Source: a virus (Duplodnaviria; Caudoviricetes). From it: DNA of 36,849 nt. Positions 6,189 through 36,170 of the stretch are shown one piece after another. The position numbers and the translations under genes were made by a program. The stretch's first letter is position 1. The number at the start of each line of letters is the position of its first letter. The notes under the pieces are model-generated. The model saw only the letters and a program-made list of their open reading frames with translations. It was not told the DNA's origin and did no database searches. Location of the stretch: positions 1 to 36,849 of IMG/VR virus record IMGVR_UViG_3300032218_000693; one strand, 5' to 3'.

Positions 6189-6199
6189 GGGACCGTAAA

Positions 6200-7435: not shown

Positions 7436-7446
7436 GATAAAGTTTT

Positions 7447-8994: not shown

Positions 8995-9004
8995 GGGATA
9001 AGAT

Positions 9005-12000: not shown

Positions 12001-12730
12001 TTATAGCATGAAAGATATCGCAAAGCTTGACGATCGTATCACTAATTTAGAGTATTACACTCAGCTTTCTCTTCTTGAAAAGAAAGCTAAAGATATGACC
12101 GTAACTGATGCTAACGGTTTAGATAGATTTAAAAACGGTATCTTTGCAGATGCATTTAATTCTGATCTTTTAACCGATACTTCAAATCCTGAGAATAGTA
12201 TTTGTATCGATGCAGACTCTTCATTAGCTCGTCCATATAATATCAGGGAAGATATTCCTATTGTTTTTAATAGTGGTTCGTCTACTAGAGCTACAAAAAC
12301 GGGTCGTGCTATCACACTTCCTTATACAGAAGTTTCATTCCTTCCACAACCATATGCGACTAAATATCGTAACTCAGCACACGTGGCTTATGCTTGGCAC
12401 GGAAAACTTCAACTGTTCCCATGTTATGATAACTCAAAAGATACGGCAAACGGTGGATCACTAAGTATTACCGTTGATAACACTAAAGCATGGAAAGATT
12501 ACGCTAAGAGTCCATATGGCACAATCTGGGGTGACTGGAGAACATCAACTTCAACATCATCAAACACAGTGTTTACATCAGGTTCTGAACAGAAAACTGT
12601 AAGTGTTGACATAGGATATGTAGGTGGCAACATCAGTGAAGATGAAGCTTATAGAAGAGCAGTTCAGAAGTTAGGTGGAAATAGTGATGATTACGTAAAG
12701 GGAACTGTAACTGGAACGTTCACTGGTTAA
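9005..12730 (+). CDS. Large virion structural protein, VrlC/DUF4815-like, N-terminal part
   Basis: Motifs FDDYD..QYYRILYR.G.ALQARELTQMQ, NENAPGAWRLK, RRYSMKDIAKLDDRITNLEYYTQLSLLE and DRFKNGIFAD. These match the large post-gp8 protein of cyanophage-type T4-like phages. Confidence 0.8.
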   Translation: MPINTDLNIAPIFDDYDANNQYYRILYRAGTALQARELTQMQTMQQTQIERIGNVFYRNGDLVSNTGFTPNDDPIRPYARLQDNAANGTGYVLSDLLNTYAYDSVANLSAKVVFVKTGLESQYPNTATIYLEYKFGSGSNSTTSSIQSFSNNRTLEFRQVTQAGNTVVATINTYANTLANTYATGNGHFISVSEGIIFINGTFVRVPNPTYGIVNAYGTYAGNTVVGFTLKEEIITEVDDPSLLDNALGYPNENAPGAWRLKLTPELTALDPAVAANTPGFNVIAQYNYGSLISKSTAGKDAYQIAGDVIDTRMYESAGNYVVNPFTADTISTSPDGDFNSNYFYGRIGAGIGYVQGTRVSIDRTAHVQMRRGIDTLTKTSQQITFNYGGYYSVNEVAGIFEFNKAQKVYLYDTAQKAVTNRTFAEASVTGTLIGNAMARCFTLNNGVPGTNAAIYNVHLFNIQIANGYSPGQVKALYANSTHKGFADLYKTGLQGTSAKPQLYTFGFSGIKNLRDASNNNNTEYLYRTANTSATMATDGSVSIIISSSQPGGTDILPFGIGTLNDSDAQSFNLILSANVSTVALAGTVNVYTTNTSVLGTSTAFTTRFASGDQIKVGSEIRTVASVSNNTVLNVDAPFSVANTGQTYYKTYLKGKILPISSVPATGPVSNIAISNSTAFTIYSGQANLSTSVAVDVVYDVLRTSTSPAKKAIKKDRFVKINTSANPYGPWCLGYSDVHKVSKVYASADGSYALTGLDVTGNFTFDTGQRDSYYDLAYLYAKPGYSTSSFPYLLVQLDYFQANTSTGVGFFTVESYPIDDANTSNTTAIQTKDIPLYVSDSGDKIWLRDYIDFRAPATLTANDTGAVDLANSVSVNNAISYAVVNPSSALTLQVPTNGLNVPSYGGNFQADYTMYLPRKDLVFITKDKQIKIKEGLPSVTPQTPLYPENAMPIAVYDIPSFPSLTTDQMDSEYLINKVSKTLTRDTSTNISTSLLLNRRYSMKDIAKLDDRITNLEYYTQLSLLEKKAKDMTVTDANGLDRFKNGIFADAFNSDLLTDTSNPENSICIDADSSLARPYNIREDIPIVFNSGSSTRATKTGRAITLPYTEVSFLPQPYATKYRNSAHVAYAWHGKLQLFPCYDNSKDTANGGSLSITVDNTKAWKDYAKSPYGTIWGDWRTSTSTSSNTVFTSGSEQKTVSVDIGYVGGNISEDEAYRRAVQKLGGNSDDYVKGTVTGTFTG

Positions 12731-12767
12731 TATTTTTGCTATGAGAAAATCGATTTAGGAGATTAAA

Positions 12768-15434
12768 TTGGCAGGTACAAGTACAACAACAACTACTACT
12801 ACGACTACATCTAATCGTACTGGTACTACGATGGAGGTTGGATCGTCTAATTCAACGTACTCAGTTGGTGATGTTGTCACTGACGTTACGATGAATCCTT
12901 ATATTGCTAATAGAATCGTATCATTCTTAGCATATAACATGCGTCCTAACCAAAGACTTCATGCTTTCTTTGATGGTGTTAATGTTGATGAACATTGTGC
13001 ACCAGGTATTGTTCCTACAACAGTTGCAGATACTGCAGACTATAAATCAATCTTAAAAAATGGTAACTTTGGTGATCCTCTCGTTTCAGATATCAATGGT
13101 ATTGTAGCTGGTCAGTTTAACATCCCCGCTGGTAAGTTTAAGACCGGTGATAGATTGTTTGAACTCGCGGACGTTGATAGTATCACAGCCGGTTCTGATG
13201 CTTATACAACTATTGCTCACTCAAACTTTACTGCTTCTAATTTAACTACGACAAAAAAGTCGGTTACTTTAACGACTGTAAATCCTGAGATTAAGTATGT
13301 TCCAACCGCGCAAACTACTACATCATCATCAAATACAATCATTATCAATAAAGTTCGAGATATTGTAAATGTAACTTATTCTTGGGAACCTCTCGCTCAA
13401 GGTCTTACTATCAATACACCTGATAATCAACCGGGCATTTTTGCAACTTCTATTGATCTTTACTTTAAACAAAAAGCACAAAATGTTAACAACGGTATTC
13501 AAGTTTATCTAACAGAGATTAATAATGGTTATCCAGATGGAAAAGCCATTTTGCCTTTCTCAACAGTTTCGAAAAAACGTGATGACGTTGTAGTAAGTGA
13601 TAATGCAGCTTTAGAAACAACTTTTACATTTGAAGCTCCAGTCTATCTACAAAATGGTAAAGAGTATGCTGTTGTTATTAAACCTGATGCAAACGATGAA
13701 GACTATTTTGTTTGGACTGCTAAACTTGGTGACAATGATGTTGCTACAGGTCTTCAGATGTTTAGTCAACCTATTCTTGGTACGGTTTTCTATGGTGCAA
13801 CTACCACGGAGTGGACAGCTGTACAAGATGAGTACATTAAGTTTAACTTAAAGAGAGCTAGCTTCTCAAACGCTACCGGCACTGCTGTTTTCAATAACTC
13901 AAACACAGACTTCTTGAATGTAGAGAATATCTCATACGCTAACACGTCGGCTGGTATTAAAGCTGGCGATTACGCGTTTAAAGCTACTAACTCAACGGTA
14001 ACGACAACTAACACTTCGATACAAGGTATCGTTGAATATTATGATTCATCTAAGAACATTGTGTATATCACAAATGATAGCGGTAACGCATTTGCTAATA
14101 ATAGTTACATTCAGATTCATAGATTCGCAAACTCTACGTTAGCATCATCTCCTAACACGAGTACATTTATCGCTGGCGCTAACGTTATATCTACTAAGAA
14201 TCCCGTTGTTGACGCTATTGCAGCTAACTTTGCAACAGTTCTTCCACCAGGTACAAGCATCAATTATAACTACATTGGAACAAGCAATACATTTTCAGTA
14301 GATAGCACCACATTAAAAATTAAATCTGGACATGAAACAGAATTCTTCGACAAAGAAAGAATTGTTGCTTCTAAGTCGACTGAGCTTGGTTCGATGAGTG
14401 GTAATAAGTCTATGACCATTTCTGCAGATATGTTTACTGACACAGAGTATCTTTCACCACTTATCGATACAGTAAGATATAAGCAAGTAGTGATTCAAAA
14501 TGACATTGATCCTGTTGGAATAAGTTACGATGAGTATTTCAATTCAGGTGCTGCTAAGTCAAAGTATATCTCTAAAGTTATTACTTTGGCGGAAGGTCAA
14601 GATGCTGAAGATCTTCAAGTGATCATCTCAGCTTATCGTCCACCAAGTTCAGATATTCAAGTATATGTAAAATTCTTAAACGGTGAAGACGGTGAACCAA
14701 TCTCACTTAAGACTTGGGCACCTTTGGTAAGTAAAGCGCCTGATCTTTACAGCAACCCAAGTAACCCAACTGATATGCGCGAGTTTGTTTATATCGTACC
14801 TAAGTATTATGGTCTTAAGCCAACAACCGGTGTCATAACTTGTACTAATTCTTCAGCTACTGTTACAGGTGTAGGTACTGCTTTCACAACAGATTTGAAA
14901 GTTGGTTACTTTATTAACATGAGAGCTAACACTACTTTTGGCGAAACTACACGTAAAGTTGTTGCGATTGCTAACAACACCCAATTAACTCTTGACGCGC
15001 CATTCTTTGGTAACTATACAACAAACGCTTACTTCTTAGTTCCGCCTCCAACGACGCCTTGGTTGTCAGAAAGTACTAAGACTCAGCTATCGGGTAACGT
15101 TGCAGCTTACACTACGACAAATATTATTACAGGTGCAAACACAAACTTTGATACTGAGTTGAGACCGGGTACTATCATCTCAATCAATGATGATGAGCAA
15201 GTTGTAGTAAGCATTACTAACAGTACATCTCTCGCAGTTGGTACACCTTGGTCTGCAAACGTTTCAGGAATAAATGCTTATTCAGTAACACCTGCGGGCG
15301 TCACTTACTTGAACTCTTCAAACAATCAATACACAACATTTAAACGATTCCAGATCAAAGCAATCTTGCAGTCAGATAGTTCTGCAACGGTTCCAAGAAT
15401 GGATGACGTTAGAGCTCTAGCGTTGCAGCTATAA
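12768..15434 (+). CDS. Large virion structural protein, VrlC/DUF4815-like, C-terminal part
   Basis: TTG start with SD AGGAGA at 12757-12762. Motifs FFDGVNV, EPLAQ, SIDLYF, TFTFEAPVYL, SKYISK.ITL and C-terminal F.IK.IL.S..VPR..D.RALAL. Confidence 0.8.
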   Translation: MAGTSTTTTTTTTTSNRTGTTMEVGSSNSTYSVGDVVTDVTMNPYIANRIVSFLAYNMRPNQRLHAFFDGVNVDEHCAPGIVPTTVADTADYKSILKNGNFGDPLVSDINGIVAGQFNIPAGKFKTGDRLFELADVDSITAGSDAYTTIAHSNFTASNLTTTKKSVTLTTVNPEIKYVPTAQTTTSSSNTIIINKVRDIVNVTYSWEPLAQGLTINTPDNQPGIFATSIDLYFKQKAQNVNNGIQVYLTEINNGYPDGKAILPFSTVSKKRDDVVVSDNAALETTFTFEAPVYLQNGKEYAVVIKPDANDEDYFVWTAKLGDNDVATGLQMFSQPILGTVFYGATTTEWTAVQDEYIKFNLKRASFSNATGTAVFNNSNTDFLNVENISYANTSAGIKAGDYAFKATNSTVTTTNTSIQGIVEYYDSSKNIVYITNDSGNAFANNSYIQIHRFANSTLASSPNTSTFIAGANVISTKNPVVDAIAANFATVLPPGTSINYNYIGTSNTFSVDSTTLKIKSGHETEFFDKERIVASKSTELGSMSGNKSMTISADMFTDTEYLSPLIDTVRYKQVVIQNDIDPVGISYDEYFNSGAAKSKYISKVITLAEGQDAEDLQVIISAYRPPSSDIQVYVKFLNGEDGEPISLKTWAPLVSKAPDLYSNPSNPTDMREFVYIVPKYYGLKPTTGVITCTNSSATVTGVGTAFTTDLKVGYFINMRANTTFGETTRKVVAIANNTQLTLDAPFFGNYTTNAYFLVPPPTTPWLSESTKTQLSGNVAAYTTTNIITGANTNFDTELRPGTIISINDDEQVVVSITNSTSLAVGTPWSANVSGINAYSVTPAGVTYLNSSNNQYTTFKRFQIKAILQSDSSATVPRMDDVRALALQL

Positions 15435-19507: not shown

Positions 19508-22500
19508 ATGCCAACACAAGTTCAGTTTAGAAGAGGTACCGCAACTCAGAATGATGCTTTCACCGGAGCTAATGGTGAGATCACCGTCGACCTAACGAAT
19601 AAAACGTTAAGAGTACATGACGGTGTGACTGCCGGTGGTACTAAGTTATCTAACACAGTTTCTGCAGAATTCACTAACGCACATTTTTATGGGGCATCCG
19701 TATTTTCTGGCAATAGTAATTTTTATGCTCCTATCTACGCGAATAGTAACATTACGATTGAAGGTCATCTAGATGTTAATAATTCTGTAGAATTCTACTC
19801 GCTGGTTACTGCGCATGGAAACTTGCAAGTTAATGGTCACATCGATGTAGGTAACACAGCCGACTTCTATGATGTTGTAACTTTTCATAATTCAGTCACT
19901 TTTGACGCTAATGCTCAAGTCAACGGATCATTCGGTGTAGCTAATTCTATTAGCACCAATGGTAACATTCGTATCAATACAAGTGATGGAACCAAACATC
20001 TTTCCGTAGGTAACTCAACTGTTAACACGCAAGTTTATCCTGGAAACATTTACTTAAATGGATCTTCTCTAGTAATAGGTAAGACTAACAACAACACTAC
20101 GATCACTGATGGTACGATTACCATAGGTACGACGACGATCAACTCAACAGTTATCGCGATAAGTGGAACACCAATCAATGCTACTTCGTTCTCAGGTACA
20201 GCTAACAACTCATTGAATCTTGGTGGAGTACCTGCAGCTAACTACGCTAAGCTGACGGGTGCAACATTCACCGGTGACGTTAACATCAGCGGTAACTTAG
20301 TAGTCAATGGATCTACTATTACACTCAATACAGCTACTCTAGACGTATCAGATCTTAATATCACTATTGCTAAGGGATCACCGAGCCCAGCTGCATCAGA
20401 CGGCGCGGGTATAACAGTAGACGGTGCAAACGCTACGATCACTTACATTTCAGGTACAAACACATTTAACTTCTCAAATTATATTCGCGTCGGTAACTCT
20501 TCAGTTAACTCAACTATCAACTCAACTGCTTTTACCGGTGACTCGGCTACTGTCGGCGGAAACACTGCTTCTGACTTAAGAACGTATTCAGATAATAAAG
20601 CAGCTAACGCTTACAGCAACGCTACGTCATATGCTGATTTAAAAGCAGCGAATGCTTACTCAAATGCAACTAGCTACGCCGATAATAAAGCTGCTAATGC
20701 TTACAGCAACGCTACTTCGTATGTCGACACAAAGATCGGAACTGCTAATGCAGCTATCACCGGTAATGCTGCAACTGCTTACTCTAACGCGGTATCATAT
20801 GTTGATACTAAGATAGGTACAGCCAATGCTGCAATAACTGGAAATGCTGCAACTGCTTACTCAAATGCTACTAGCTACGCCGATAATAAAGCTGCTAATG
20901 CTTACAGTAACGCTACGTCATATACTGATACCGCAATAGGAACTGCTAATTCAGCAATTACGGGTAATGCCGCTACAGCATATACAAATGCTACATCATA
21001 TACTGATACTAAGATAGGTACGGCTAACGCCGCGATAACTGGAAATGCTGCAACTGCTTATAGTAACGCTACTTCTTATGCAGATACGAAAGCTGCAACT
21101 GCTTATAGTAACGCTACTAGTTATGCTGATACTAAATCTTCAGCTGCATATACTAACGCTACCTCGTACACTGATACTAAGATTGGTACAGCCAATGCTG
21201 CTATAACTGGTAATGCGGCAACCGCTTATACAAATGCTGTTTCATATACTGACACAAAGATCGGTACGGCTAACACAGCTATCACGGGTAACGCCGCAAC
21301 GGCTTACTCAAATGCAACTTCTTATACCGACACTAAGATTGGTACAGCAAATGCTGCAATTACAGGAAATGCTGCAACTGCTTACTCAAACGCTACTAGT
21401 TACGCTGATACTAAAGCAGCTACAGCTTATTCTAATGCAACTTCATATGTTGACAATGCGATTGGAACTGCTAATGTTGCGATAACTGGTAACGCTGCTA
21501 CCGCATATACAAATGCTACATCATATGTTGATACTAAAATCGGTACGGCTAACTCCGCGATTACTGGTAACGCGGCGACTGCTTATACAAACGCTGTATC
21601 ATATACAGACACTAAGATTGGTACCGCAAATGCCGCAATTACGGGCAATGCGGCTACTGCTTATAGTAACGCTACTTCTTATGCTGATACTAAAGCAGCT
21701 ACGGCTTACTCGAATGCAACTTCATATGCGGATACAAAAGCTGCAACTGCTTACAGCAATGCAACAACATATTCTTCTAATGCTTCAAACATTTCTACTG
21801 GTACGGTAAATGAAGCTCGTTTACCTTATCGAATGAATCAAAATCTTACCACAACAAATAATGTAACATTTGCAAATATTTCATTAACTGGTGGTACTAT
21901 ATCAACTGCACCTCAATATGGTAATGACATTGTCAATAAAACATATGCTGATGCTATTGCTACAGGCGTCAATTTCCATCCAGCCGTTAGATTAACAACA
22001 ACTCAAACATTTGATAGTTCAACTGCAACTTATAATAATGGTGCTAATGGTGTCGGCGCTACAATTACTGATATTACACCGTTTATTGCACTTTCATTAG
22101 ATGGTGTAACGGCTGCATATAATGATCGTATTCTTATGAAAAACTCTTCCAACACTGTTTGGAATGGTGTTTATGTTGTATCTAACACAGGTTCCGGTTC
22201 ATATCCTTGGATTCTTACTAGAGCGACAGATTACGACCAAGTTGGAACTGGTACAAACGAAGTAGATCAAGGTGACTTGGTTTATGTTCTTGCTGGTTCT
22301 ACATTAGCTGGTACTTCTTGGGTTCAACAGAATAATATAACTACCATCGGTACTGATGCGATTTCATTTGTTCAATTTTCTTCTAAAGCACTCTATACAT
22401 TATCTGATGGAACAGGTCTCTATTACAGTGTTGGTAGTGCATATGATGGTTCTGCGGCGTCAACATTAGCAGTTAATGCATCTTACATTGCAACTTTATC

Positions 22501-23638
22501 CGCAAATAATGCATCATATCTTGGTGGCACAGTTGCTTCTGGCTATCAGACAACAGCAGGTTTATCAGGCAACGTTTCTACATTAACTGCCAATAACACA
22601 ACATTTGTCGGCACCGTTGCAGCTGCAAATGTTGTGTCAAATGCCCAGCTTTCTGGTAATCTAGCTAACTATGTTACTGCTACTAACTTAACAAACAACT
22701 TAGCTAATTATCAGACAACCGCTGGTTTATCGGGTAACGTTGCAACGTTAACGGCTAATAACACTTCGTTTGTTGGCACAGTTGCTGCTGCAAACGTAGT
22801 GTCTAATGCTCAACTCTCTGCAAACTTAGGTAACTACCAAACGACTGCTGGTCTATCATCAAATGTAGCCACATTAACAGCCAATAATACATCATTCGTT
22901 GGTACTGTAGCAGCAGCGAACGTTGTATCAAACGCTCAGCTCTCTAGTAACCTTGCTAACTATGTTACTGCTACTAACTTAACAAACAATTTAGCTAACT
23001 ATCAGACGACAGCTGGTTTATCGGCCAACGTGGCTACATTAGCGGCTAATAATGCATCATATCTTGGTGGTGTAGCAGCTGCTAACTATGTAAATACATC
23101 TGGAAGTTATACAATTACTGGTATTCATACTCATAACGCCAACGTTGTTTTAACCACACCACTTATTTCTAATGGTGGTTCGGGTACATCCGGTCAAGTA
23201 TTAACATCAAATGGTGCAACCGGAGCTCCATATTGGACCGCGGCGGCGGCAGGTGTAAATACTGCATCACAATATACGTGGTCTAATACTCAATCGTTTA
23301 CCAATACAATTACGTTTTCTGGTAACGTAGTAATATCTGCTACCATTACAGCTAATGCTAGTGTTGGTACTGCAGGTCAAGTATTAACTTCTGGTGCTTC
23401 TGGTAATGTATACTGGGCAACTGCATCGGCTGGTGTTAATCTTTCATCTTCATATGCATTTACTAACACTACAGCTTCTGTAAATTCTACTTCTGGTGCT
23501 ATTACAACAGCTGGTGGTATTGGCGTAGCAAATAACGTATATGTAGGTGGTCGTGTTGGTTTTGCTAATACAACATCATCGGTAGCATATATGCAGTATA
23601 ATGCAACAACTAATTCTCTTGACGTGGTATTTGGTTAA
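19508..23638 (+). CDS. Long tail fibre with Mtd-N-like domain and a repetitive coiled-coil shaft
   Basis: MPTQVQFRRGT...FTGANGEITVD..RVHDGVTAGG matches the major tropism determinant N-terminal domain. It also has 15/26-aa repeats, a DRIL.KN..NGVYVV..W.LTRATD module and 42-aa repeats. Confidence 0.88.
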   Translation: MPTQVQFRRGTATQNDAFTGANGEITVDLTNKTLRVHDGVTAGGTKLSNTVSAEFTNAHFYGASVFSGNSNFYAPIYANSNITIEGHLDVNNSVEFYSLVTAHGNLQVNGHIDVGNTADFYDVVTFHNSVTFDANAQVNGSFGVANSISTNGNIRINTSDGTKHLSVGNSTVNTQVYPGNIYLNGSSLVIGKTNNNTTITDGTITIGTTTINSTVIAISGTPINATSFSGTANNSLNLGGVPAANYAKLTGATFTGDVNISGNLVVNGSTITLNTATLDVSDLNITIAKGSPSPAASDGAGITVDGANATITYISGTNTFNFSNYIRVGNSSVNSTINSTAFTGDSATVGGNTASDLRTYSDNKAANAYSNATSYADLKAANAYSNATSYADNKAANAYSNATSYVDTKIGTANAAITGNAATAYSNAVSYVDTKIGTANAAITGNAATAYSNATSYADNKAANAYSNATSYTDTAIGTANSAITGNAATAYTNATSYTDTKIGTANAAITGNAATAYSNATSYADTKAATAYSNATSYADTKSSAAYTNATSYTDTKIGTANAAITGNAATAYTNAVSYTDTKIGTANTAITGNAATAYSNATSYTDTKIGTANAAITGNAATAYSNATSYADTKAATAYSNATSYVDNAIGTANVAITGNAATAYTNATSYVDTKIGTANSAITGNAATAYTNAVSYTDTKIGTANAAITGNAATAYSNATSYADTKAATAYSNATSYADTKAATAYSNATTYSSNASNISTGTVNEARLPYRMNQNLTTTNNVTFANISLTGGTISTAPQYGNDIVNKTYADAIATGVNFHPAVRLTTTQTFDSSTATYNNGANGVGATITDITPFIALSLDGVTAAYNDRILMKNSSNTVWNGVYVVSNTGSGSYPWILTRATDYDQVGTGTNEVDQGDLVYVLAGSTLAGTSWVQQNNITTIGTDAISFVQFSSKALYTLSDGTGLYYSVGSAYDGSAASTLAVNASYIATLSANNASYLGGTVASGYQTTAGLSGNVSTLTANNTTFVGTVAAANVVSNAQLSGNLANYVTATNLTNNLANYQTTAGLSGNVATLTANNTSFVGTVAAANVVSNAQLSANLGNYQTTAGLSSNVATLTANNTSFVGTVAAANVVSNAQLSSNLANYVTATNLTNNLANYQTTAGLSANVATLAANNASYLGGVAAANYVNTSGSYTITGIHTHNANVVLTTPLISNGGSGTSGQVLTSNGATGAPYWTAAAAGVNTASQYTWSNTQSFTNTITFSGNVVISATITANASVGTAGQVLTSGASGNVYWATASAGVNLSSSYAFTNTTASVNSTSGAITTAGGIGVANNVYVGGRVGFANTTSSVAYMQYNATTNSLDVVFG
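20609..21748 (+). repeat. Array of 8 x 15-aa and 10 x 26-aa coding repeats (AY(S/T)NATSYxD...)
   Basis: Counted from the translation, order SSLLSLLSSLLLSLLLSS, 380 aa total. Confidence 0.9.
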
Positions 23639-26288: not shown

Positions 26289-27860
26289 ATGTTCGTAGCA
26301 TTTATTCCAAGACCAACACAAGTAGTTACGATTAGTTCAGCGGCGAACAACATTAACTTGTTCACTCAAGCTAGCAGTCCAACCTATCCCTTGAATCTTC
26401 TTTGCTTCATCAATGCTTCGGTAGGTTCATCTTCAAACACGACTGCTGCGTTTAGAACGGGTACAGGTTGGTCGCCGGGTTCATGGTTATACATTCAGAA
26501 CGCTAACACGATCAGTGGTGGCGTCGGTCCAGCTGGTTCACCTGGAAGTACCGGCTCAACGGGTAACACTGGTTCTACAGGTACGACTGGCGCAGCGGGA
26601 ACTCCCGGATCGACTGGTTCTACTGGCTCAACTGGTTCACCGGGCACAGCCGGCGGAACGGGTTCAACTGGTAGTACCGGTCCACATGGTGCAGGCGGCG
26701 CGGGTGGTACAGGTGGCGCTAACTACGTTGCGGGTAACGCGGGTTCATCTGGCTCACCGGGTGGTCCGGGTGGTACAGGCGGGACGGGTGGTACGGGTGG
26801 TCCCGGTGGTGCTGGTGGAACTGGTGGCACGGGCGGAAATGGTACTGCTGGATCACCTGGTGGAACGGGTGGCGCGGGCGCACCTGGTGGAACCGGTGGT
26901 AACGGTAGCGCAGGCGCCGGCGGTGGTATCTCATTCTTAGCAGACACCGTAACTGGCTTAACGACTGTGTTGAATAACACGGGTACACTAACTGGTGGAA
27001 GCGGAGGAAGTGGCGGTGCTGCAGGTCCCGGTGGTCCCGGTGGTCCGGGAGGAACCGGCGGTCCAGGAGGAGCCGGTGGTGGTGCGGGTCCCGGCGGTCC
27101 AGGTGGTCCCGGTGGTCCCGGTGGCGCAGCTGGCCCAGGAGGACCCGGCGGCGCAGGTGGAAACGGCGGCGGTGGTGGCGGTGGCGGCGGTGGTTCGGGC
27201 TTCTATGGTCCGGGTGTAAGATTCACTGGCATTGCACAAGAAGCGATTAAGTATATCACCGGCGGTGCTGGTGGCGGCGGTGGAGCGAGTTATTCTGCAC
27301 CTGCCGGTGGCGGTCAAGGTGGTTACACTTACGTAGCTGCGTTCTATTATCCGGGTCCGAAAGCAGATCCTCCAAGCTACTATCCAGCATATAACGTATA
27401 TGCTTATGATGGTGGCGCAGCGTCTGGCGGTTCTGCTGGTGGTGGCGGTGGTGGCTGGTATGGCGGCGGTGCGGGTGGTACCGGTGGCGGTATTCAAACT
27501 TCCGGTGCTGGTGGTAACCAAGGTACAGCACAGCTGCTTTACACACCCGGTCCAAAAGCTGATCCACCGATACCATACTACGGTAACTATTGGGCCGGCG
27601 GTGCGGGCGGTGCGGGCGGTGGTCAGGGACCAACCGGTTCAACTGGTCCAGCTGGTAGTCCAGGACCGACTGGTTCAACTGGTCCGACTGGATCTGCGGG
27701 TAGCGCTGGATCACCGGGTTCAACTGGACCGACTGGTTCAACTGGTCCGACCGGACCTGCGGGTAGCGCCGGTTCACCGGGTTCACAGGGACCTGCTATC
27801 TCTGGTAACTCAAACATTATCTACGTTGCAACGGGAACACGCAACGGACCAATAAGCTAA
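26289..27860 (+). CDS. gp38-like glycine-rich tail adhesin with elongated polyglycine-II strands
   Basis: Beta rungs [12 protein letters not shown] and [12 protein letters not shown] plus the terminal [23 protein letters not shown] resemble T2/T6/S16 gp38 architecture. Gly runs are interrupted by Tyr-rich loops. It follows the distal fibre genes. Confidence 0.75.
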
Positions 27861-27870
27861 GAGGAAGATT

Positions 27871-28326
27871 ATGGATATTCATTATAAAATCATAGAAGTA
27901 AATCCTGATGAGCACTCAATCGTTGTTAGATACTTCACTGATCTTATAACAGAAGAAATGTTAGCAACGATCCCAGATGCTGTTGAAAAAAGATTAGATG
28001 GTTCGCCTATAAGATGCAGGACTGATTACAATATTAATGTTCCAATTCCTGCACCAGAAGGTGAAGATCTTCATAACTTTATTCTTTCAAGAGCACCGGT
28101 TCATTGGCTAGATACTCAAGAAAAGATTGCTAACACTGAAGTAGATACTTCTCTGTCATCTCTTAAAGATCTCATGAACGTAAAGAAAACGGTAACGGTA
28201 TCTCTAGAGCCACCCCTACCTGCTATTACTACAGAAGGATCTGGTGAGAAGCCAGACGGTAACATGACAGATGATGATATTCTTGAACTCCTTGAGAAAG
28301 CTAAGCAAGGAAAGCTTGCGCAATAA
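27871..28326 (+). CDS. Hypothetical protein (possible adhesin chaperone)
   Basis: SD GAGGA, 151 aa, acidic. Immediately downstream of the adhesin. Confidence 0.6.
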   Translation: MDIHYKIIEVNPDEHSIVVRYFTDLITEEMLATIPDAVEKRLDGSPIRCRTDYNINVPIPAPEGEDLHNFILSRAPVHWLDTQEKIANTEVDTSLSSLKDLMNVKKTVTVSLEPPLPAITTEGSGEKPDGNMTDDDILELLEKAKQGKLAQ

Positions 28327-28329
28327 ATT

Positions 28330-29406
28330 ATGAAGCTTAATGAAAATGTGTTCTATTACGATGGTGATAAAAAGATCTATCGTAATAGAAACGATCTTTT
28401 GAAACAATCTAAGCATTGGATCAGAAGATTCTATTATTATGACAAAGAGTTTGGACAAGTACAGTGGACTAAAGATCCCGTTGAAGATCTTTGGACACTG
28501 TATAGTCGTAGAGCGCAGCAGATTCGTGATGAGTTTGAATACGTTATATTATGCTACTCAGGCGGCGTAGACTCAACGAATGTTTTAGAAGCTTTTTACT
28601 ACGATAACATTCATATAGATGAGATTCTTATTGTCGGGGCTTTCTCACAAGACAGTGAGTATGGAGTAGATGAGAATCATAACGGTGACATATATCATAA
28701 CGTTTACCCAACGTTAAAAGCTTTAGATCTTCCGAACACTAAGATAACAGTAGAAGATTACACGAAGCACTTTAATAATCCAGAAAACTTTCCATTGATC
28801 AAAGAATTTGGTGATGACTTTGCTTTGCAGCTAGGTCCATACACTAGTGTTCATACGTTATTCTGGCATGACTTAAAGTATTTCATCGGTCAGAATAACA
28901 ACAAGAAAACATGTTACATCATGTGTTCAGACAAGCCAAAGCTATCTATAGATGGTGGTAACAATCTATTCTTTACAGATTTTAATGATCACGCAGTAAT
29001 CGACTATGGGTCAAACTTAGTAGATGAAAACTTTCAAAGAGTTAACTTCTACACAGATCCTAAAGCTGAAGCTATCATACGTAAGCAGTTACATATGATC
29101 ATGGAGTTCTATATTAAAAATGTTGTAGTTGAAAAGAGTATGAGTCACGACTTCTTCAATGTTAATTACATTAAGATCATCGATAATCTCGTGTACGATC
29201 TTAAGAATCCTCTTCGTTTTAAGTCTAAGAAGTCAGCTATCTCATGCTTGAGTGTTAGAGACATGTTTATGTTGAATAAGCAAGATTCTGATATGTTTAA
29301 GATATATAAGAATGCTACTCTAAAGTTAGACAAGTATCTCTCTCACACGAAGAGAGGATATCAGACAAGACAATACTTTATCTCGGAGAAACCAGTAAAG
29401 TTATGA
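28330..29406 (+). CDS. PP-loop (adenine nucleotide alpha-hydrolase/asparagine synthetase-like) ATPase
   Basis: VILCYSGGVDS PP-loop motif. No recognisable glutaminase domain. Confidence 0.75.
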   Translation: MKLNENVFYYDGDKKIYRNRNDLLKQSKHWIRRFYYYDKEFGQVQWTKDPVEDLWTLYSRRAQQIRDEFEYVILCYSGGVDSTNVLEAFYYDNIHIDEILIVGAFSQDSEYGVDENHNGDIYHNVYPTLKALDLPNTKITVEDYTKHFNNPENFPLIKEFGDDFALQLGPYTSVHTLFWHDLKYFIGQNNNKKTCYIMCSDKPKLSIDGGNNLFFTDFNDHAVIDYGSNLVDENFQRVNFYTDPKAEAIIRKQLHMIMEFYIKNVVVEKSMSHDFFNVNYIKIIDNLVYDLKNPLRFKSKKSAISCLSVRDMFMLNKQDSDMFKIYKNATLKLDKYLSHTKRGYQTRQYFISEKPVKL

Positions 29407-29879
29407 CTTATGTATTCTACTTCTTATGCTGGACATTCATGATCTATTGGATGCACCGTATCGTACACATCGTACCTTACGTGAATAAGATTCATGGCGA
29501 TCATCATAAGCAAGTTAGTAACGCAACTATCAGGGGACTTCATTGGACTAATGTGTTCTTATACTTCGATAGCTGGAAGTCGACGGCCGATCAATGGATA
29601 ACTGAAGTTATACCTACGATCATATTTTCTGCGGTAACCGGTCAGTGGTGGTTGTTTGTTTTCTACTACGTCTGGGCAGCTTTCATACAAGAATCAGTTG
29701 AACATAATCCAAAAGTTAATTTGTATCCATTCATCACCAGCGGTAAGTGGCATCTGATACATCATAAATATCCTCATAAGAATTATGGCGTTTTCTTTCC
29801 TATATGGGATATGATCTTTGGTACGTGGAAAGGTTTAGATGGCGACTCATCAAAGTTGGCTAACGACAAACGTATCTGA
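29403..29879 (+). CDS. Sterol desaturase/fatty-acid hydroxylase family di-iron membrane enzyme
   Basis: His boxes YWMHRIVH, HGDHH and HLIHH, followed by NYG...WD.IFGT. Hydrophobic segments present. Confidence 0.88.
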   Translation: MTYVFYFLCWTFMIYWMHRIVHIVPYVNKIHGDHHKQVSNATIRGLHWTNVFLYFDSWKSTADQWITEVIPTIIFSAVTGQWWLFVFYYVWAAFIQESVEHNPKVNLYPFITSGKWHLIHHKYPHKNYGVFFPIWDMIFGTWKGLDGDSSKLANDKRI

Positions 29880-30657
29880 TAGAGATGATGTTAAAGCGGC
29901 CGATCTTAAAGTCTATCTTAAAAAGATAGATGATTGGAACTTAAACTTATCTTTTGATGAAGCTTCTAGCTATACTATTCAAAAGATCAAAGATCTTAAG
30001 AAAGATATCTACGTAGGTCTTAGCGGTGGAATGGATTCTGAGTATGTCGTTAAGATGTTTCTTCAAGAAAACGTTCAGTTCAAAGCTATCATTATTGAGA
30101 CACCCGGAAATAATCTTGAGCTAGCGTACGCTTATCACTTCTGTCGTTTATATAAAATTGATCCTATCGTTATTAAAAAATCTGAAGCAGATATGCTCAA
30201 GTGTTACTACAATGATATTCTTATGAAGATCAGTGGCTATGGTTTTAATGCTGTAGCGACTTACATGGCAGCCCAATACGCGGAAGAAAGAAGCGGCGTA
30301 TTCGTTATGGCTGAACATTTGATCGATGATCAAGATGATGGATCAATATTGATTGGTGCGAATGAGTGGGACTTTTATAACGATGTGCTTATAGGTGAAC
30401 ATAACACACATTACTTCTTTAATTACACTCCTGAGATTACTTACGCTATGATCAAAGAAGTAAGAAAAGATGAAGATGCACAAGAATATAAACACAGGAT
30501 ATATGGTATTCCATTCAGACCAAAAATCATATATCAATATAGCAGACAGTATGAAGATGCTTTGACACAATTAAGAAGAACAAAGTGGGTGAAACATAAT
30601 CCTAACTTTAGTTTTGGAACAAGAGAAGAGTTCTTATCTCTTATGGAGAAGATGTAA
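29839..30657 (+). CDS. Second PP-loop ATPase
   Basis: IYVGLSGGMDSE motif. Confidence 0.75.
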   Translation: MATHQSWLTTNVSDRDDVKAADLKVYLKKIDDWNLNLSFDEASSYTIQKIKDLKKDIYVGLSGGMDSEYVVKMFLQENVQFKAIIIETPGNNLELAYAYHFCRLYKIDPIVIKKSEADMLKCYYNDILMKISGYGFNAVATYMAAQYAEERSGVFVMAEHLIDDQDDGSILIGANEWDFYNDVLIGEHNTHYFFNYTPEITYAMIKEVRKDEDAQEYKHRIYGIPFRPKIIYQYSRQYEDALTQLRRTKWVKHNPNFSFGTREEFLSLMEKM

Positions 30658-31583
30658 TGACAGAACAACAAAAGTTTGAAAGTGATGTTAAACTTGCAGA
30701 AGCTGAAAACGGAAAGCTTCTAAATGAGACTAAAGAAGTATTAACACAGAATCGTAATTATGCAGCGACTCGCTGGTGGGGAAATGATCTTTATACAGAT
30801 CTAGAGAGAGCTTATGGAAAGTATCTTTTCATTCCATTTGCTATACCTAAGATCGTACCAAATGATATGAACAAGTTCGTTGAGTTCTTCTTCACTAAAT
30901 CTCAGAATGCCGTAAAGATAAGAACAGATCACTTGAGTCAAGCGGGTTCTGGCGCAGTCGGTAGATCACCATACAAGCAAATCACTAGCAGCGAAGAAGG
31001 TGTAGGTGATCATTCAGATGTTTGGAGTGATAATCAAGTTCCCGAGATATACAATCAGTTTCCTGAACTTTTCGAACAGATACACGAATACATGCCATTC
31101 ATTGAACGTCAAAACTTTAAATGGTTCATGTGGTCGAGTAACTGGGATGTTCCTCCTCATCGAGACTTTGGTCCTCAGATAGATATGCCCGCCAGCATGA
31201 GAATCAAGATCTTTGATAATAATCCATATGAAACGTTAGAGATGGAAGTAGATCCATTAGACTGGAACACTGGAAACTATCATAGAAGATATAGACTTCC
31301 TATTCCAGAAGATACTAACTCTTTCGCTTGGAATAATCTTCGACAGAAACATAGAAGTGAATACATCAAGGGACACAGAAAGATTCTTATGATTATATCT
31401 CCTAAAGAACTTAGAAGATGTTTGACGGGTTCTAATCTTAATAAGTACGTAGATTTACTCGATAGAAGTGTTGATAAATATAGAGACAACGTGGTCGTTG
31501 ATACTGATACTACATTTTCAGACTATCTAACTTTCAAAGAAAGTGACCCGATAAATAAGATTTTGAATAGGGAGAATCCATAA
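30657..31583 (+). CDS. Putative Fe(II)/2OG cupin oxygenase (Asp/Asn beta-hydroxylase-like)
   Basis: VPPHRD (HxD), SMRI and a distal FAWNN.RQKH giving the third ligand. Confidence 0.55.
   Translation: MTEQQKFESDVKLAEAENGKLLNETKEVLTQNRNYAATRWWGNDLYTDLERAYGKYLFIPFAIPKIVPNDMNKFVEFFFTKSQNAVKIRTDHLSQAGSGAVGRSPYKQITSSEEGVGDHSDVWSDNQVPEIYNQFPELFEQIHEYMPFIERQNFKWFMWSSNWDVPPHRDFGPQIDMPASMRIKIFDNNPYETLEMEVDPLDWNTGNYHRRYRLPIPEDTNSFAWNNLRQKHRSEYIKGHRKILMIISPKELRRCLTGSNLNKYVDLLDRSVDKYRDNVVVDTDTTFSDYLTFKESDPINKILNRENP
31551..31557 (+). promoter_or_regulatory. T4-like late promoter box ATAAATA
   Basis: About 25 nt upstream of the 31583 ATG, followed by SD GGAG. Confidence 0.55.
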
Positions 31584-31957
31584 TGCCTGTTAAGCTAGTT
31601 CGTTATACGTACAAGACGAGTGATCAAGAGTGGAATAGAAAAGCCACTCTTACTACCTATCAGCAACTAGTCAAAGATAACTTTAACGAGAACGTTGTTA
31701 AACAACAACAAACTTTGTTGAGGGAAGATCCAGTTTCTTATGAAGATAATGTTTCTAAGAAAGTATGGTATTTTGAAACAGCCGAAGAAGCATTATCTTT
31801 CTGGAATGCTATTAATGACACGAGCAACGAGTTTGTAAAAGCTTATAAAAACTCTACGTCAAACTCAGTCTCTGGTTTTGTTCAACATAAGATTGAAACA
31901 AAGATTGAACAAATTGATGGTACAGTCATCACAGAGATTCAACCCAGACAAAATTAA
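31583..31957 (+). CDS. Hypothetical protein
   Basis: 124 aa with SD GGGAGA. Stop and start overlap as TAATG. Confidence 0.6.
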   Translation: MPVKLVRYTYKTSDQEWNRKATLTTYQQLVKDNFNENVVKQQQTLLREDPVSYEDNVSKKVWYFETAEEALSFWNAINDTSNEFVKAYKNSTSNSVSGFVQHKIETKIEQIDGTVITEIQPRQN

Positions 31958-32949
31958 TTAATAAGATCTATAACTGATTTGTCGGTGTTGATGATCATCT
32001 TCATTATCTGATTCATCTCTTCGTATTCTACGAATGAGTTGGATCCACCGATCTTTATCATCTCTTCAACATATTCTGAATCGTTAGCTATCTTTTTTCC
32101 AGCTTCGGCGAATTGTTTGACGCGTTCAGGTGTCATTCCTGGTCCGCCGAAGTATGGACGTGTAAGTTGATTCAATTCTCTAAAAAGTTCTAATACTTTC
32201 TTATGTTCATTATCGGTAACGAACTCGGCAAACAGCGGGACTTCTGGTATGACTGGGCTTCTCTTTAGAGCTCCAACTTGAGCGATCGCTTGAATCTCAT
32301 GCCCTTTCTTCAACCATTCGGGATAAAGCATTACAGTATTCTGTAGAGTACCAAATCGAGCATCGATCTCATTAGAGAGAATAGCTTGATGTATATTCTT
32401 ATATCCGTAAACCATCTTAGACTCAATCTTTAAGATCTTAGTGAGCATGTAGTTCACTAGATTATTTTCACTCGTGTCTTGATTGCCAAAGATAAAAGGA
32501 TTACTTTTCTCTCTCATCTGTTGGATGTTTGTAAGTCCTTTTCTGTTATGTGCCCAGATAACGAACACACCATTATCACCGTCATTAGTTGCAAATAGAT
32601 ACTTAAAGTTATTGAGATCATATTTTACTTGTGGATTCTTTCCTGATAAAGCAGTAACGAATGAGTTTCCATTTACAGAAACTGTTGCAATTGTATTCTG
32701 TTGATCTGCTTTATTGTAAAGCCAGTTATTAAGAACGAGACCGCCCGCACCTTGCATAGATGAGACGATAACTTTAGGATTACCTTCCATATGTTTACTA
32801 AGATACTTAGCTATGATCGTAGCATTAGTGTATGGACCTCCGCCTACCGTGCTTGACGTAACTATAGTTATCGGTTCGGCGGCGTAGCCGATTGAACTAT
32901 AAATACATATAGCAAAGACGAGGGATATCTTTTTTATGAAATCGAACAT
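31954..32949 (-). CDS. tctC: TctC/Bug-family periplasmic substrate-binding protein (copy 1)
   Basis: Start moved to MFDFIKK (ATG 32949, SD GGAG). Signal peptide ending YAA. Motifs MQGAGG, GYK...A...EIDA, IPEVP and RPY.G.PG...ERV. Confidence 0.82.
   Translation of the reverse strand: MFDFIKKISLVFAICIYSSIGYAAEPITIVTSSTVGGGPYTNATIIAKYLSKHMEGNPKVIVSSMQGAGGLVLNNWLYNKADQQNTIATVSVNGNSFVTALSGKNPQVKYDLNNFKYLFATNDGDNGVFVIWAHNRKGLTNIQQMREKSNPFIFGNQDTSENNLVNYMLTKILKIESKMVYGYKNIHQAILSNEIDARFGTLQNTVMLYPEWLKKGHEIQAIAQVGALKRSPVIPEVPLFAEFVTDNEHKKVLELFRELNQLTRPYFGGPGMTPERVKQFAEAGKKIANDSEYVEEMIKIGGSNSFVEYEEMNQIMKMIINTDKSVIDLIN
32898..32905 (+). promoter_or_regulatory. Perfect T4 late promoter TATAAATA for the QueC-like gene
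   Basis: Exact consensus, 30 nt upstream of ATG 32936. Lies within the antisense tctC coding sequence. Confidence 0.65.
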
Positions 32950-33904
32950 AATGACTCCGTGTAAGAATTTAGTACTTTTTTCAGGTGGATTAGATTCCAC
33001 ATACGTTATGTATAAACTTTTATCTGAAACTGAAGATGAGATAACAGCAGTTTTATTAGAAAAGGCTGACGGATCTATTAATAAGATATCTTCACCTAAA
33101 GATCAGAATCGACACGTCTTAGACATCGTTAATGAATTAAAAAAAATCCGTGACTTTGATTACGTTGTAAAACAGGTGCGTGATGATGATTATGATGAAG
33201 AAGTAATGATTCATTACTATACTTATTTCGTAGCGTATGCAGCACCTTTCATTAACTCAAAAACGTTTGATAGATTAGTTACAGGAAGAACTTGGGAACA
33301 GTTTAATAAGAAGTTAGTTGAAACTGAAGATAAAAGAATAGGAAATCCTTCTTATTTCGCAACTATTAGATTAATGACAAAATTAACAAATCGCGGTTAT
33401 CTTTGGAATCCATTGATAACACATGATTTTCACAATCATTTTAATAGGTGGCACGCCTTCAAATATCTTCCTGATAACTTGAAATCAAAAACATTTTCAT
33501 GTAATTCACCTATAAAAACTGAAGAAAATAATAAACCATGTAAAGAATGTTATAAGTGTTTGTGGGATGAACTAGTTAATATCTTTATAGAAAAAGGATT
33601 AACATCATCGCAGGTAGAACACTTCAGAAGAAAAAAATGTCGTGAATATGGTATCTCTAAGAAAGATGCACCGATGCGTTTTTGGTTACCACTATTTATG
33701 GGAAGAGGAAGAATATTCAACGATTTAGATTCTAAAGAAAAAATACAAGCACTTATAGGTAATCCTAGTATGCCTCATTACTCGGTGCCTAAGAAGTTTG
33801 CTGAAGACCCTAAATCTATCTGGTACATGAATGATCTCTCTGATATTAATGACATAGAAGACAGATTAAGTAAACTTCGGTCCGACTACCCAAACAACCA
33901 GTGA
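32936..33904 (+). CDS. QueC-like PP-loop ATPase with a Cys cluster
   Basis: LVLFSGGLDST and SC-x12-CxxCxxC (QueC-type Zn site). Start may be 32936 or 32951. Confidence 0.75.
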   Translation: MKSNIMTPCKNLVLFSGGLDSTYVMYKLLSETEDEITAVLLEKADGSINKISSPKDQNRHVLDIVNELKKIRDFDYVVKQVRDDDYDEEVMIHYYTYFVAYAAPFINSKTFDRLVTGRTWEQFNKKLVETEDKRIGNPSYFATIRLMTKLTNRGYLWNPLITHDFHNHFNRWHAFKYLPDNLKSKTFSCNSPIKTEENNKPCKECYKCLWDELVNIFIEKGLTSSQVEHFRRKKCREYGISKKDAPMRFWLPLFMGRGRIFNDLDSKEKIQALIGNPSMPHYSVPKKFAEDPKSIWYMNDLSDINDIEDRLSKLRSDYPNNQ

Positions 33905-34480
33905 ACGACGAATACCTCGAGTTATCGGCTTCACACGGTGAATCATAAATGATGGGAACAGGAGTGCTCTTCCCTTAGGTGTCGGAAGAACAGGTGCTGT
34001 AGCTTCTTGTCCATCATTGATTTGAAACTCACCACCATCAAAGTCATCATTCAACAATAGAGACAATGAGAGCTTTCTAGTCTCATTCATGTTTGCCGGC
34101 ATGTGACCGAGGCCGATATCCATGTGCCAGTCGTACTTACCTTCTTGTTCTGCCGTGTAAGTCGTGTATTGGAAATCGCTGTAACCATTCAACTCATAAC
34201 CGTAGAACATCTCGTTGCTCGATTGAATGATGAAGTTCAAGCGATCGAATATCCAAGCTGTGTCTGGATTACGTGGGTGAAACTTTACGTTTGAGCGCCG
34301 AACTTTCTCAGTCTCTTCTTGGCTACCGGAGAATGTTGTTCCAGGTTCTGTTCCCTGAGCTTCACAATAATCAATGATCATCTGCAACTCTTCGCTGGTA
34401 AAAGCATCGTCCCAGTGCGTCCAGCCATGCGTGATTCGTGATCTCGCAGTTGGATCATTATAGATTGTCGTGTACTTCAT
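33866..34480 (-). CDS. 2OG-Fe(II) oxygenase, prolyl-4-hydroxylase/PKHD type
   Basis: Motifs YDWHMD, RKLS.SLLL, FDGGEF and LFPSFMIHRVKPITRGIRRSLVVW. Start moved to MKYTT (ATG 34480, SD GGAGA). Confidence 0.9.
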   Translation of the reverse strand: MKYTTIYNDPTARSRITHGWTHWDDAFTSEELQMIIDYCEAQGTEPGTTFSGSQEETEKVRRSNVKFHPRNPDTAWIFDRLNFIIQSSNEMFYGYELNGYSDFQYTTYTAEQEGKYDWHMDIGLGHMPANMNETRKLSLSLLLNDDFDGGEFQINDGQEATAPVLPTPKGRALLFPSFMIHRVKPITRGIRRSLVVWVVGPKFT

Positions 34481-35162
34481 TAAAGATTCTCCAGTTAGTA
34501 GTAGGTTGGATTCCGGTTGGTTTTGGCATGTTCTTTTTATAGGTGAATAGAACGTCACCCGCTAAGCAGACGCGACGATCCATAAGGTCTTCTACGCTCT
34601 TACAGCCGGGATCTTTCTCATCGACACCGTATCCTACTGTGTAATGGTTGAGCTTAGCTGGGAAGACAAATGTGTCACCAAACTTGGGAGAGAAAGAAGC
34701 CTCGTAAGCGTTGTACTCGTTCTTCTCCTTAGAGTTGAAAGCGATCATACCGTAGTATGGATCATTCATGTGTGGAGGAGTCGACGCAAACACCAGAGGT
34801 TTCTCCAGTCTCTCCGGAACGTGAACGTAGTAAGTGAATGAGAGATGAGCGTCTTCGTGACTATGAAACGGTGTGTGTCTCTCCTTGGTGATATTCATCC
34901 AAGTCTTAATGATGTTAATGTCAAAGACGTTAGGATCGATTGCGAGAGTCTCGAGATACTGTCCGATCATCTTAGTGACATGTCCGAAGAGCAGCGCAAA
35001 AGTTTCCTCGTGATGTATGTTAACGTGATTGGTATACTCATTCGAGTATCCCTCAACGGTCATGTACTTAAAGATCTTCTTCATGAAAATCTTCTGAAAC
35101 TCTTCTTTGTCAGCATACTGTTCCTGAATAACTAGAGTTGGGAACAGGGAGTGCTTAATCAT
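34458..35162 (-). CDS. Putative 2OG-Fe(II) oxygenase (TIGR02466-like)
   Basis: Motifs LFPT, WMN...HSH...SFTYYV, FPAKLNH and R.CLA.D. Confidence 0.8.
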   Translation of the reverse strand: MIKHSLFPTLVIQEQYADKEEFQKIFMKKIFKYMTVEGYSNEYTNHVNIHHEETFALLFGHVTKMIGQYLETLAIDPNVFDINIIKTWMNITKERHTPFHSHEDAHLSFTYYVHVPERLEKPLVFASTPPHMNDPYYGMIAFNSKEKNEYNAYEASFSPKFGDTFVFPAKLNHYTVGYGVDEKDPGCKSVEDLMDRRVCLAGDVLFTYKKNMPKPTGIQPTTNWRIFNEVHDNL

Positions 35163-36124
35163 TTCTTCACCTCGTTGAACGACTTTAGTCTCTCGATAGT
35201 CTTCTCATCTATATTAGAGATCTTATCGATAAGAGTATTAAACTCTTGCCACTCGATAGGATTAACTTCAAAGTTCATCTTCTTAGCTTCGTCGAGATAC
35301 TCAGGATCTCTAACAGCTTTATTAAAAGCTTCTCTCAACTCAGCTACTCTTTTCTCCGGAACGTTGGGAGGAGCTACGAAGGGTCTCAGAGTAGCTAATG
35401 AAGCTTCAACTATCTCTAGTATTTTTTGATCTTGATCAGATTGTACCATCTCGTGTAGAGTTTGTACACCTCTAAAATCAGGATGTCTGTTCGGTCCGTT
35501 ACCAAACTGAAGGACAGGATATATCCCAGAATCTTCTTTCAACCAGTTAGGCTTCTGAGTCTTGATTCCTAAAAGGTTATAGATGACAGCGTCGACTTCT
35601 TTCTGCTCGAGAGCTAAACGAGCTAGTCCAGGATTAGCGTATCCAGTGATGATCTTATAATCTTGTTTTCCGATATCTCGAACGAAGAAAGCTAGACTGA
35701 TTCCGGGATAGTTCTCAGAACCTACGAGCAAGCTTTTGTTTCTCGTGTTAGCCCACACGATAACAGCGTCTTTTCTACCGTCGGCGTTTGATCCGATCCA
35801 GTTAAACTTCTTAACATCAAACCTAATGTTCTCACCACCGAGAACTCCAACCATAGGAATATCTTTATAGATGGCACCGATCGTGTTTCCATCTTTTGGA
35901 GCTACGTTATATAAGTGATTTGTTGCTATGAGACTTGCGGCGCCGGGCATCGTCTGTATGACTACAGAGGGTTGTTCGGGTAAATACTTTGAGATGAATC
36001 TTGATAACACTCTAGCGTTAATGCTATATGTGTCGTTTTCTGAAGGTACGATAACTTTAAGTTGGGTCTCAGCTTGAGCTACACAGGTAAATAAAGTCAA
36101 AGCAATCAATAACGATCTAAACAT
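35159..36124 (-). CDS. tctC: TctC/Bug-family periplasmic substrate-binding protein (copy 2)
   Basis: Signal peptide ending AQA and SD GAGGAG. Motifs MPGAASL.ATNHLYNVAPKDG, FNWIGS, GY.....LALEQKEVDA and RPFVAPPNVP..RVAELREAF. Confidence 0.88.
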   Translation of the reverse strand: MFRSLLIALTLFTCVAQAETQLKVIVPSENDTYSINARVLSRFISKYLPEQPSVVIQTMPGAASLIATNHLYNVAPKDGNTIGAIYKDIPMVGVLGGENIRFDVKKFNWIGSNADGRKDAVIVWANTRNKSLLVGSENYPGISLAFFVRDIGKQDYKIITGYANPGLARLALEQKEVDAVIYNLLGIKTQKPNWLKEDSGIYPVLQFGNGPNRHPDFRGVQTLHEMVQSDQDQKILEIVEASLATLRPFVAPPNVPEKRVAELREAFNKAVRDPEYLDEAKKMNFEVNPIEWQEFNTLIDKISNIDEKTIERLKSFNEVKK

Positions 36125-36162: not shown

Positions 36163-36170
36163 TATTTATA
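36163..36170 (-). promoter_or_regulatory. Perfect T4 late promoter TATAAATA driving the tctC/oxygenase operon
   Basis: Plus strand reads TATTTATA. It is about 38 nt upstream of the minus-strand ATG at 36124. Confidence 0.7.

Follow-up and report, generated by a model that had tools for sequence, protein, structure and literature searches.

The locus studied here raises the question of why a phage adhesin should carry the same octapeptide, PGPKADPP, twice in its loops, with a block of enzyme genes behind it. The window, which is the whole stretch of DNA analysed (36,849 nucleotides), covers 36.8 kb of the genome of a T4-like phage that has not been cultured, with a gene order running from the baseplate through fibre genes to a neck gene. 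The Gly-rich, gp38-like tail-tip adhesin is encoded at 26289..27860 on the plus strand (523 aa, 36% Gly), and the motif occupies residues 355–362 (27351..27374, plus strand) and 420–427 (27546..27569, plus strand). The protein has three lysines in all, and two of them lie in the motif copies: K358 (codon 27360–27362) and K423 (codon 27555–27557). The answer put forward here, tentatively and a little short of even confidence, is that an amide ligase of the phage acylates the lysine at the apex of each loop.

The positions and codons originally given for the two copies are correct, as is the observation that five of the eight codons differ, all synonymously: the 24-nt copies differ at five positions in five codons, and every change is silent. 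Synonymous changes make up about 28% of single changes in the motif, and the naive probability of five out of five is 0.0017, a post hoc value because the motif was chosen for its protein identity. A degenerate DNA pattern for the motif occurs twice in the window versus 0 times in 100 shuffles. The flanks, which had been described as diverged, have done so in part; Tyr at −2 and a YY pair shortly downstream are common to both copies. The exact octapeptide is not widespread. The DNA pattern is present in seven IMG/VR stretches; among these seven, it is encoded in an adhesin only in a 96% identical relative (L005), it is encoded in an unrelated protein in L004, and in the other five it falls in no ORF found by the ORF caller. 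In the 96% identical relative, both motifs are intact and the residue right after each motif is changed. Among the changes listed for two variant contigs, those inside the motifs are exclusively synonymous, whereas those beside them alter amino acids. Selection on the adhesin loop tips is supported.

Homologues were collected by scans with the adhesin N-terminal domain, giving 58 viral and 42 metagenome loci. They keep the lone loop lysine and not the whole octapeptide, Asp and Pro being variable. Purifying selection, as originally proposed, is supported for the loop tips and not for the octapeptide as a unit. Among unique first loops of 9–24 residues containing Lys, a sample that includes nine adhesins from the enzyme search, 32 of 38 have the lysine no more than 1.5 residues off the middle of the loop, against a null mean of 9.4; none of 20,000 simulations was as extreme, the related sequences not being independent. 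In 65 unique lysine contexts, some of them outside loops, the next residue is Gly or Ala in 45 and position +2 is Asp in 12. The site also shifts from one loop to another: the first loop of L020, L042, and L043 contains KADP, and the window, L010, and L011 have no apex lysine in the first loop and KADP in two later loops, with one residue difference between the two copies in each of L010 and L011. Lineages tend to duplicate a variant of their own: L009 has YAPAPKGCSP twice, with 8/8 residues identical between its own copies and 4/8 common with the window motif, L110 has two copies of SKGVP, and an unrelated protein of L206 has two of GKSY. The conserved unit, judged from the sequences compared, is the lysine, not the octapeptide.

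In one clade of this adhesin family the heads are rich in His (16–27 His), and both the lysine loop and the ligase block are missing; such tips may bind metal (L038:10001–11197, L050:1856–3019, L082:2358–3518, L083:10001–11176, and L090:10001–11209). In L061, a shortened adhesin is followed by a 160-aa ORF (10594–11076) with a Cys-rich stretch and a Gly-rich tail, which may be a split head or a separate peptide.

The identification of the adhesin as gp38-like, which was part of the original prediction, is borne out by structure modelling. An AF2 model built with a 42-row alignment has a mean pLDDT of 73.4 and a pTM of 0.50; a single-sequence AF2 model was dropped as unusable (pLDDT 32). The best fold matches in the PDB are two gp38 proteins, that of PP01 (9V85; Foldseek E 5.4e-5, with Z 14.1 and rmsd 2.5 over 132 aligned positions) and that of S16 (6F45; Z 13.7 and rmsd 2.1 over 145). 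The predicted layout consists of a split beta-helix (strands at approximately 10–76, 216–235, and 504–519), a long polyglycine-II-like stalk, and a head with loops; the VIA alignment to gp38 spans residues 7–523. As summarized in PMC12032242, gp38 has a beta-helix formed from both termini and an N-terminal attachment domain that binds gp37. Like the Straboviridae gp38 proteins of S16 and PP01, the window adhesin has, in the model, a beta-helix formed from its N- and C-terminal parts. Its glycine-rich motifs alternate with variable loops as in a polyglycine II sandwich, as seen in the sequence, the 42-row alignment, and the fold matches to 6F45 and 9V85. Its gene likewise stands behind distal fibre genes, the ORFs at 24701 and 25838 directly upstream matching tail-fibre PHROG 9017. 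Unlike them, it has an extended Gly-X-X stalk and double the length, has loops with a conserved apex lysine and an enzyme block behind, and lacks the N-terminal gp37-attachment domain: the beta-helix begins at about residue 10, and the 6F45 alignment starts at residue 46 of that structure. Because this domain is missing, the adhesin is classed as gp38-like and not as a canonical gp38. Searches with the head region found no protein at E ≤ 0.001, and a PDB sequence search with the adhesin returned collagen-type compositional matches only.

In this model, the adhesin would be a gp38-like host-binding protein at the fibre tip. Motif 1 is predicted to close a hairpin between DSSP strands 352–354 and 363–365 (pLDDT 59–71). 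The segment of motif 2 has a model confidence below 50 pLDDT, and its tip position is suggested by the out-and-back alternation of the glycine runs, from which both motif loops would face the distal end. A hairpin-tip position is supported for copy 1.

Behind the adhesin lies a 151-aa gene (27871..28326, plus strand) that almost all adhesins of the family have behind them, whether or not enzyme genes are present; its product, which has zero matches in Pfam, PHROG, and NCBIfam, is a probable assembly helper. Next come the PP-loop enzyme PP1 (28330..29406, plus strand), a candidate adenylating amide ligase by its SGGVDS motif and family tree, with no significant PDB sequence match; a fatty-acid hydroxylase/sterol desaturase family protein (29403..29879, plus strand; PF04116, E 1.4e-16); a second PP-loop enzyme, PP2, which has an SGGMDS motif and belongs to a separate cluster (29839..30657, plus strand); a 308-aa protein that by eye resembles an oxygenase (HxD...H), is patchily distributed among the relatives, and has zero library matches (30657..31583, plus strand); and a 124-aa gene of the block (31583..31957, plus strand). 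They are followed by a TctC/Bug-like exported binding protein (31954..33000, minus strand), with an N-terminus that resembles a signal peptide by eye and homology to the TctC at 35159, and by a QueC-like PP-loop enzyme (32936..33904, plus strand), also a candidate ligase. The block further includes a prolyl-hydroxylase-like 2OG-Fe(II) oxygenase (33866..34558, minus strand; PF13640), another 2OG-Fe(II) oxygenase (34458..35162, minus strand; PF13759), and a TctC/Bug-like exported carboxylate-binding protein (35159..36124, minus strand; PF03401, E 3.8e-8).

The adhesin, helper, PP1, hydroxylase, PP2, and 308-aa genes abut or overlap. Late-promoter-like TATAAATA sites lie upstream of the QueC-like gene (32898..32905, plus strand) and of the TctC–oxygenase run (36163..36170, minus strand). 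With the T4 late-promoter consensus, the late-promoter-like ATAAATA is found at 25800, 31550, 32898, and 36170, a count in the window that is not above chance, only the position being suggestive. Together, the abutting genes and these sites are consistent with expression during assembly. Scans of the window for sigma-70 promoters and terminators were at chance level.

From 53 complete adhesins with a next gene, 51 were scored by hand for the lysine and a downstream PP-loop gene; eight distant adhesins, L081 (whose contig ends), truncated ORFs, exact duplicates, and L044 and L057 (too little downstream DNA) were set aside, and the stalk lysine of L048 was not counted. A PP-loop gene lies downstream of 33/34 Lys-bearing versus 6/17 Lys-less adhesins (33 with both, one with Lys alone, six with the PP-loop gene alone, and 11 with neither). 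The single Lys-bearing exception, L099, has no PP-loop gene in 3.8 kb. In two near-complete Lys-less genomes, the PP1/PP3 family is absent throughout, with four matches in the control. All rows with neither feature form one clade (SH-aLRT 98), and PP presence changes only twice on the tree. The raw Fisher p-value (2.7e-6, or 2e-4 after dereplication) was rejected as proof of a link because of shared ancestry, and an independent-pairs test of Lys versus PP was not significant (p = 1); the association therefore rests on about one shared loss. The link between the adhesin motif and the downstream enzymes thus stands as a pattern within the family, whereas it is not phylogenetically proven because the Lys-less, enzyme-less set is one clade.

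The six Lys-less adhesins with a PP-loop gene comprise L035, which lacks a head, L061, which is short, L077, and L036, L040, and L048, of which the last three have Gln, Gln, and Glu at the tip, respectively. Each of these three carries an Amidoligase_2 gene (PF12224) above the Pfam cut-off beside the adhesin (L036:10032–10898, L040:13860–14663, and L048:11595–12401). Amidoligase_2 is absent from the window, from every other locus of the set, and from all five Lys-bearing genomes (0/5), and a search for further amidoligase loci found only two, both already in the set. The trio lies within one clade and represents at most two events. An exchange of Lys for Gln/Glu together with an amidoligase would be chemically coherent, and an amidoligase acting at a Gln/Glu tip would reverse the polarity of the amide. 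Five contigs with a PP-loop gene and a Lys-less adhesin, each <20% complete, showed no second adhesin of this kind.

The enzymes themselves were also used as search anchors. With the window QueC-like family, 32 loci were obtained, 31 of them new; a Gly-rich neighbour is present in 14 of the 31 and absent in 17. L210, L214, and L246, which belong to other phage types, have the QueC-like gene immediately behind an apex-lysine adhesin. With the PP1/PP3 family, 75 loci were obtained, 42 of which have no Gly-rich neighbour within the DNA covered. PP-loop and QueC-like enzymes therefore have other or additional substrates.

An enzyme-blind sample was drawn with a C-terminal adhesin motif, yielding 40 loci and 39 ORFs (three truncated) that reduce to 26 unique heads. 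A lysine lies near the centre of the first loop in 22 of these heads and in a later loop in one; it is absent from three. Behind the 23 Lys-bearing heads are a 275-aa gene (20), a QueC-like gene (2), or PP1 (1), and no gene of these three kinds was found in approximately 3.9 kb behind the three Lys-less heads. The 20 loci with the 275-aa gene are probably one phage group, and in its near-complete genomes G014 and G016 both PP families are absent. Six cultured gp38-like proteins have no apex lysine and no annotated cassette within 2.5 kb; they come from five Rhizobium phages and one Vibrio phage and are not independent. An apex lysine is thus accompanied by an adjacent cassette of one kind or another, which need not contain a PP-loop gene. 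Had the motif been equally common in phages lacking the enzymes, its link to them would be undermined: apex lysines are indeed common in small phages without the PP-loop families, but those phages carry another cassette behind the adhesin.

The unannotated, conserved 275-aa family stands directly after apex-lysine adhesins in small low-GC phages (L238:1545–2372, L234:3119–3946, and 18 other unique loci among L233–L272), and is often accompanied by a cysteine-dioxygenase-like gene and 2OG oxygenases. It has zero Pfam, PHROG, PDB, or Atlas assignments and 70 unnamed homologues, and contains neither a PP-loop nor similarity to the QueC-like profile. GenBank phages gave zero matches for PP1, the adhesin N-terminus, the QueC-like enzyme, and the 275-aa protein; a search of prokaryote genomes gave a single 13-residue match, which was disregarded; and nothing significant was found by PDB sequence searches with the PP1/PP3, QueC-like, and 275-aa profiles.

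The QueC-like enzyme is the best candidate for the ligase because it forms two-gene pairs with apex-lysine adhesins. Its product has SGGLDS at residue 16, in agreement with the SGGxDS P-loop, and its Atlas neighbours are QueC-domain viral clusters, with PF06508 matching below the cut-off. Its zinc motif is a variant, C-x12-CxxCxxC versus the canonical C(x)8CxxCxxC, and is partly lost in relatives; a motif search found none of the canonical QueC motifs YxQxHxxE, VPxRN, and YPDC. QueC-family enzymes that form amides on proteins are Cap9 and QatC, as summarized in PMC13329287 and bioRxiv 10.1101/2025.04.06.647259. These two act in bacterial defence (Cap9 in type IV CBASS), with an N-terminal glycine as the acceptor and 7-carboxy-7-deazaguanine as the acid (PMC13329287). 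They are QueC-like PP-loop enzymes that activate a carboxylate by adenylation and then join it to an amine of a protein, as the window enzyme, a QueC-like PP-loop protein with SGGxDS, may do; unlike them, the window enzyme is phage-encoded and without the canonical substrate motifs. Acylation of a protruding lysine has parallels in lipoyl and biotinyl domains and in EF-P, where an adenylating enzyme recognises the protruding turn and acylates the single lysine at the hairpin tip; folds and ligase families differ from those of the window loops, and this is an analogy only.

In the proposed mechanism, each PGPKADPP copy is an adhesin loop with a lone lysine, the side-chain amine of which would be acylated by one of several neighbouring ATP-using amide ligases of the phage. 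The QueC-like enzyme, or PP1 or PP2, would adenylate a small carboxylic acid and couple it to the lysine; the TctC-like proteins would bind that acid and the oxygenases would tailor it, so that the virion displays a small chemical tag to the host receptor. Recognition of the two copies by a single partner would explain why the lineage-specific flanking residues agree between them. A membrane hydroxylase and exported TctC proteins would be equally at home in a pathway to a cell-envelope component or a small molecule as in one that serves the virion. A survey of jumbo phages describes related cyanophage oxygenase clusters as making metabolites or decorating the capsule, with no role on adhesins (PMC7824862).

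The main rival is that the apex lysine is an unmodified receptor contact whose duplication serves avidity, its partner being an LPS phosphate or sugar acid or the acidic loops of a porin. The enzyme block would then have another task late in infection, for example altering the host surface or making a small molecule, and would travel with the adhesin by linkage. This rival is considered somewhat unlikely. It would accord with PP01 gp38, in which Lys168, an unmodified loop lysine, and Tyr169 contribute to LPS recognition (PMC12892980), with the apex lysines in genomes without PP-loop families, with the frequent PP blocks that have no Gly-rich neighbour, and with the outcome of the phylogenetic test. 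Charge alone would permit arginine, yet Arg does not replace the tip lysine in the loops listed, and phage types that differ widely in GC content and in the residues flanking the loop all retain the lysine. The occurrence of amidoligase with Gln/Glu tips also argues against a mere contact, as do the cultured gp38-like proteins, in which no annotated cassette and no apex lysine are found. Even without modification, the lysine would stand out as a receptor contact of unusual conservation, given that these loops are considered hypervariable. That the lysine is modified by another chemistry or enzyme appears improbable; a 2OG oxygenase might hydroxylate it, or the modifier might be an enzyme of the host or a transferase not yet recognised as such (the 275-aa gene may be one). 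2OG oxygenases accompany both T4-like blocks and small-phage cassettes, the 275-aa family resembles neither candidate ligase type, and the Gly/Ala that commonly follows the lysine resembles the X-K-G sites of collagen. However, in the minimal pairs (L210, L214, L246, and L058), a QueC-like gene adjoins the adhesin with no oxygenase, and six loci with neither the lysine nor a PP-loop gene retain the prolyl-hydroxylase-like gene (L026, L032, L038, L080, L083, and L090).

A structural lysine, with neither a modification nor a binding role, is more doubtful still. Asn/Asp-Gly-Lys is favoured in tight beta-hairpin turns, approximately 14 of the 65 lysine contexts are D/N-G-K by hand count, and motif 1 closes a predicted hairpin; most contexts (e.g., PTKG) are not of this type, however, and whole clades build the same loops without lysine. 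Very little weight is given to the original prediction's version, in which the octapeptide is a RiPP-like core that undergoes Lys-to-Asp cross-linking or hydroxylation of Asp or Pro. Although KADP recurs in the window, L010, L011, L020, L042, and L043, and oxygenases are adjacent, a Lys–Asp isopeptide is not supported, Asp at +2 being rare, which leaves no conserved paired acid, and in L009, a sister lineage, the same core block accompanies KGCSP. Beta-hydroxylation of Asp fares no better: Asp and the 308-aa gene do not co-occur, since this gene adjoins Asp-less motifs (L009 and L110) and is missing beside KADP motifs in L020, L024, L042, and L043. As for Pro hydroxylation, Pro varies, and the prolyl-hydroxylase-like gene is not tied to the motif because it is kept in the six Lys-less, PP-less loci named above.

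Acylation of the apex lysine might extend beyond this family. A broader proposal, held slightly more tentatively than the acylation itself, is that many unrelated aquatic phages chemically arm their receptor-binding protein, the apex lysine being a conjugation handle for exchangeable cassettes (PP-loop, QueC-like, amidoligase at Gln/Glu tips, and the 275-aa family) that attach different small molecules. If so, host range would depend on both the sequence of the loops and a tag added after translation. Host recognition by gp38 is currently read as a matter of loop sequence, and conjugation at the tip would be a chemistry not directly visible in genomes. If the lysine is conjugated, widespread phage genes beside tail genes (PP-loop, TctC, and oxygenases) would gain a substrate. 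No paper describing such a modification or gene block was found in the literature searched.

Several features of the blocks were observed in passing. L005 has two TctC plus QueC-like pairs (6312–10107) where the window has one, and in many loci 400-aa PP paralogues are paired one-to-one with TctC-like genes. A 914-aa Gly-rich protein in L206, unrelated to the adhesin family and with three lysines, two of them in GKSY loops, is followed by five QueC-like paralogues, TctC, and an oxygenase (3040–12187). PP blocks away from adhesins hold genes that by eye are TctA/TctB-like or acyl-carrier-like (L130:4430–6191, L134:12207–13466, and L170:3047–3271), pointing to uptake and small-molecule assembly. 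A Twitch-domain radical SAM gene (L009:9150–10430) is in the block of the phage with the Cys-containing motif KGCSP; radical SAM genes are found beside Cys-less tips as well (L025 and L048). Elsewhere in the window, two consecutive ORFs of 1241 and 888 aa (9005–15434) match PHROG 358 (approximately 2056 positions), in place of which relatives have one ORF of approximately 2150 aa, so that the gene may be split or involve self-splicing or a frameshift, and a 1376-aa fibre protein (19508–23638) has an Mtd_N domain and many internal repeats of the ATAYSNATSY type.
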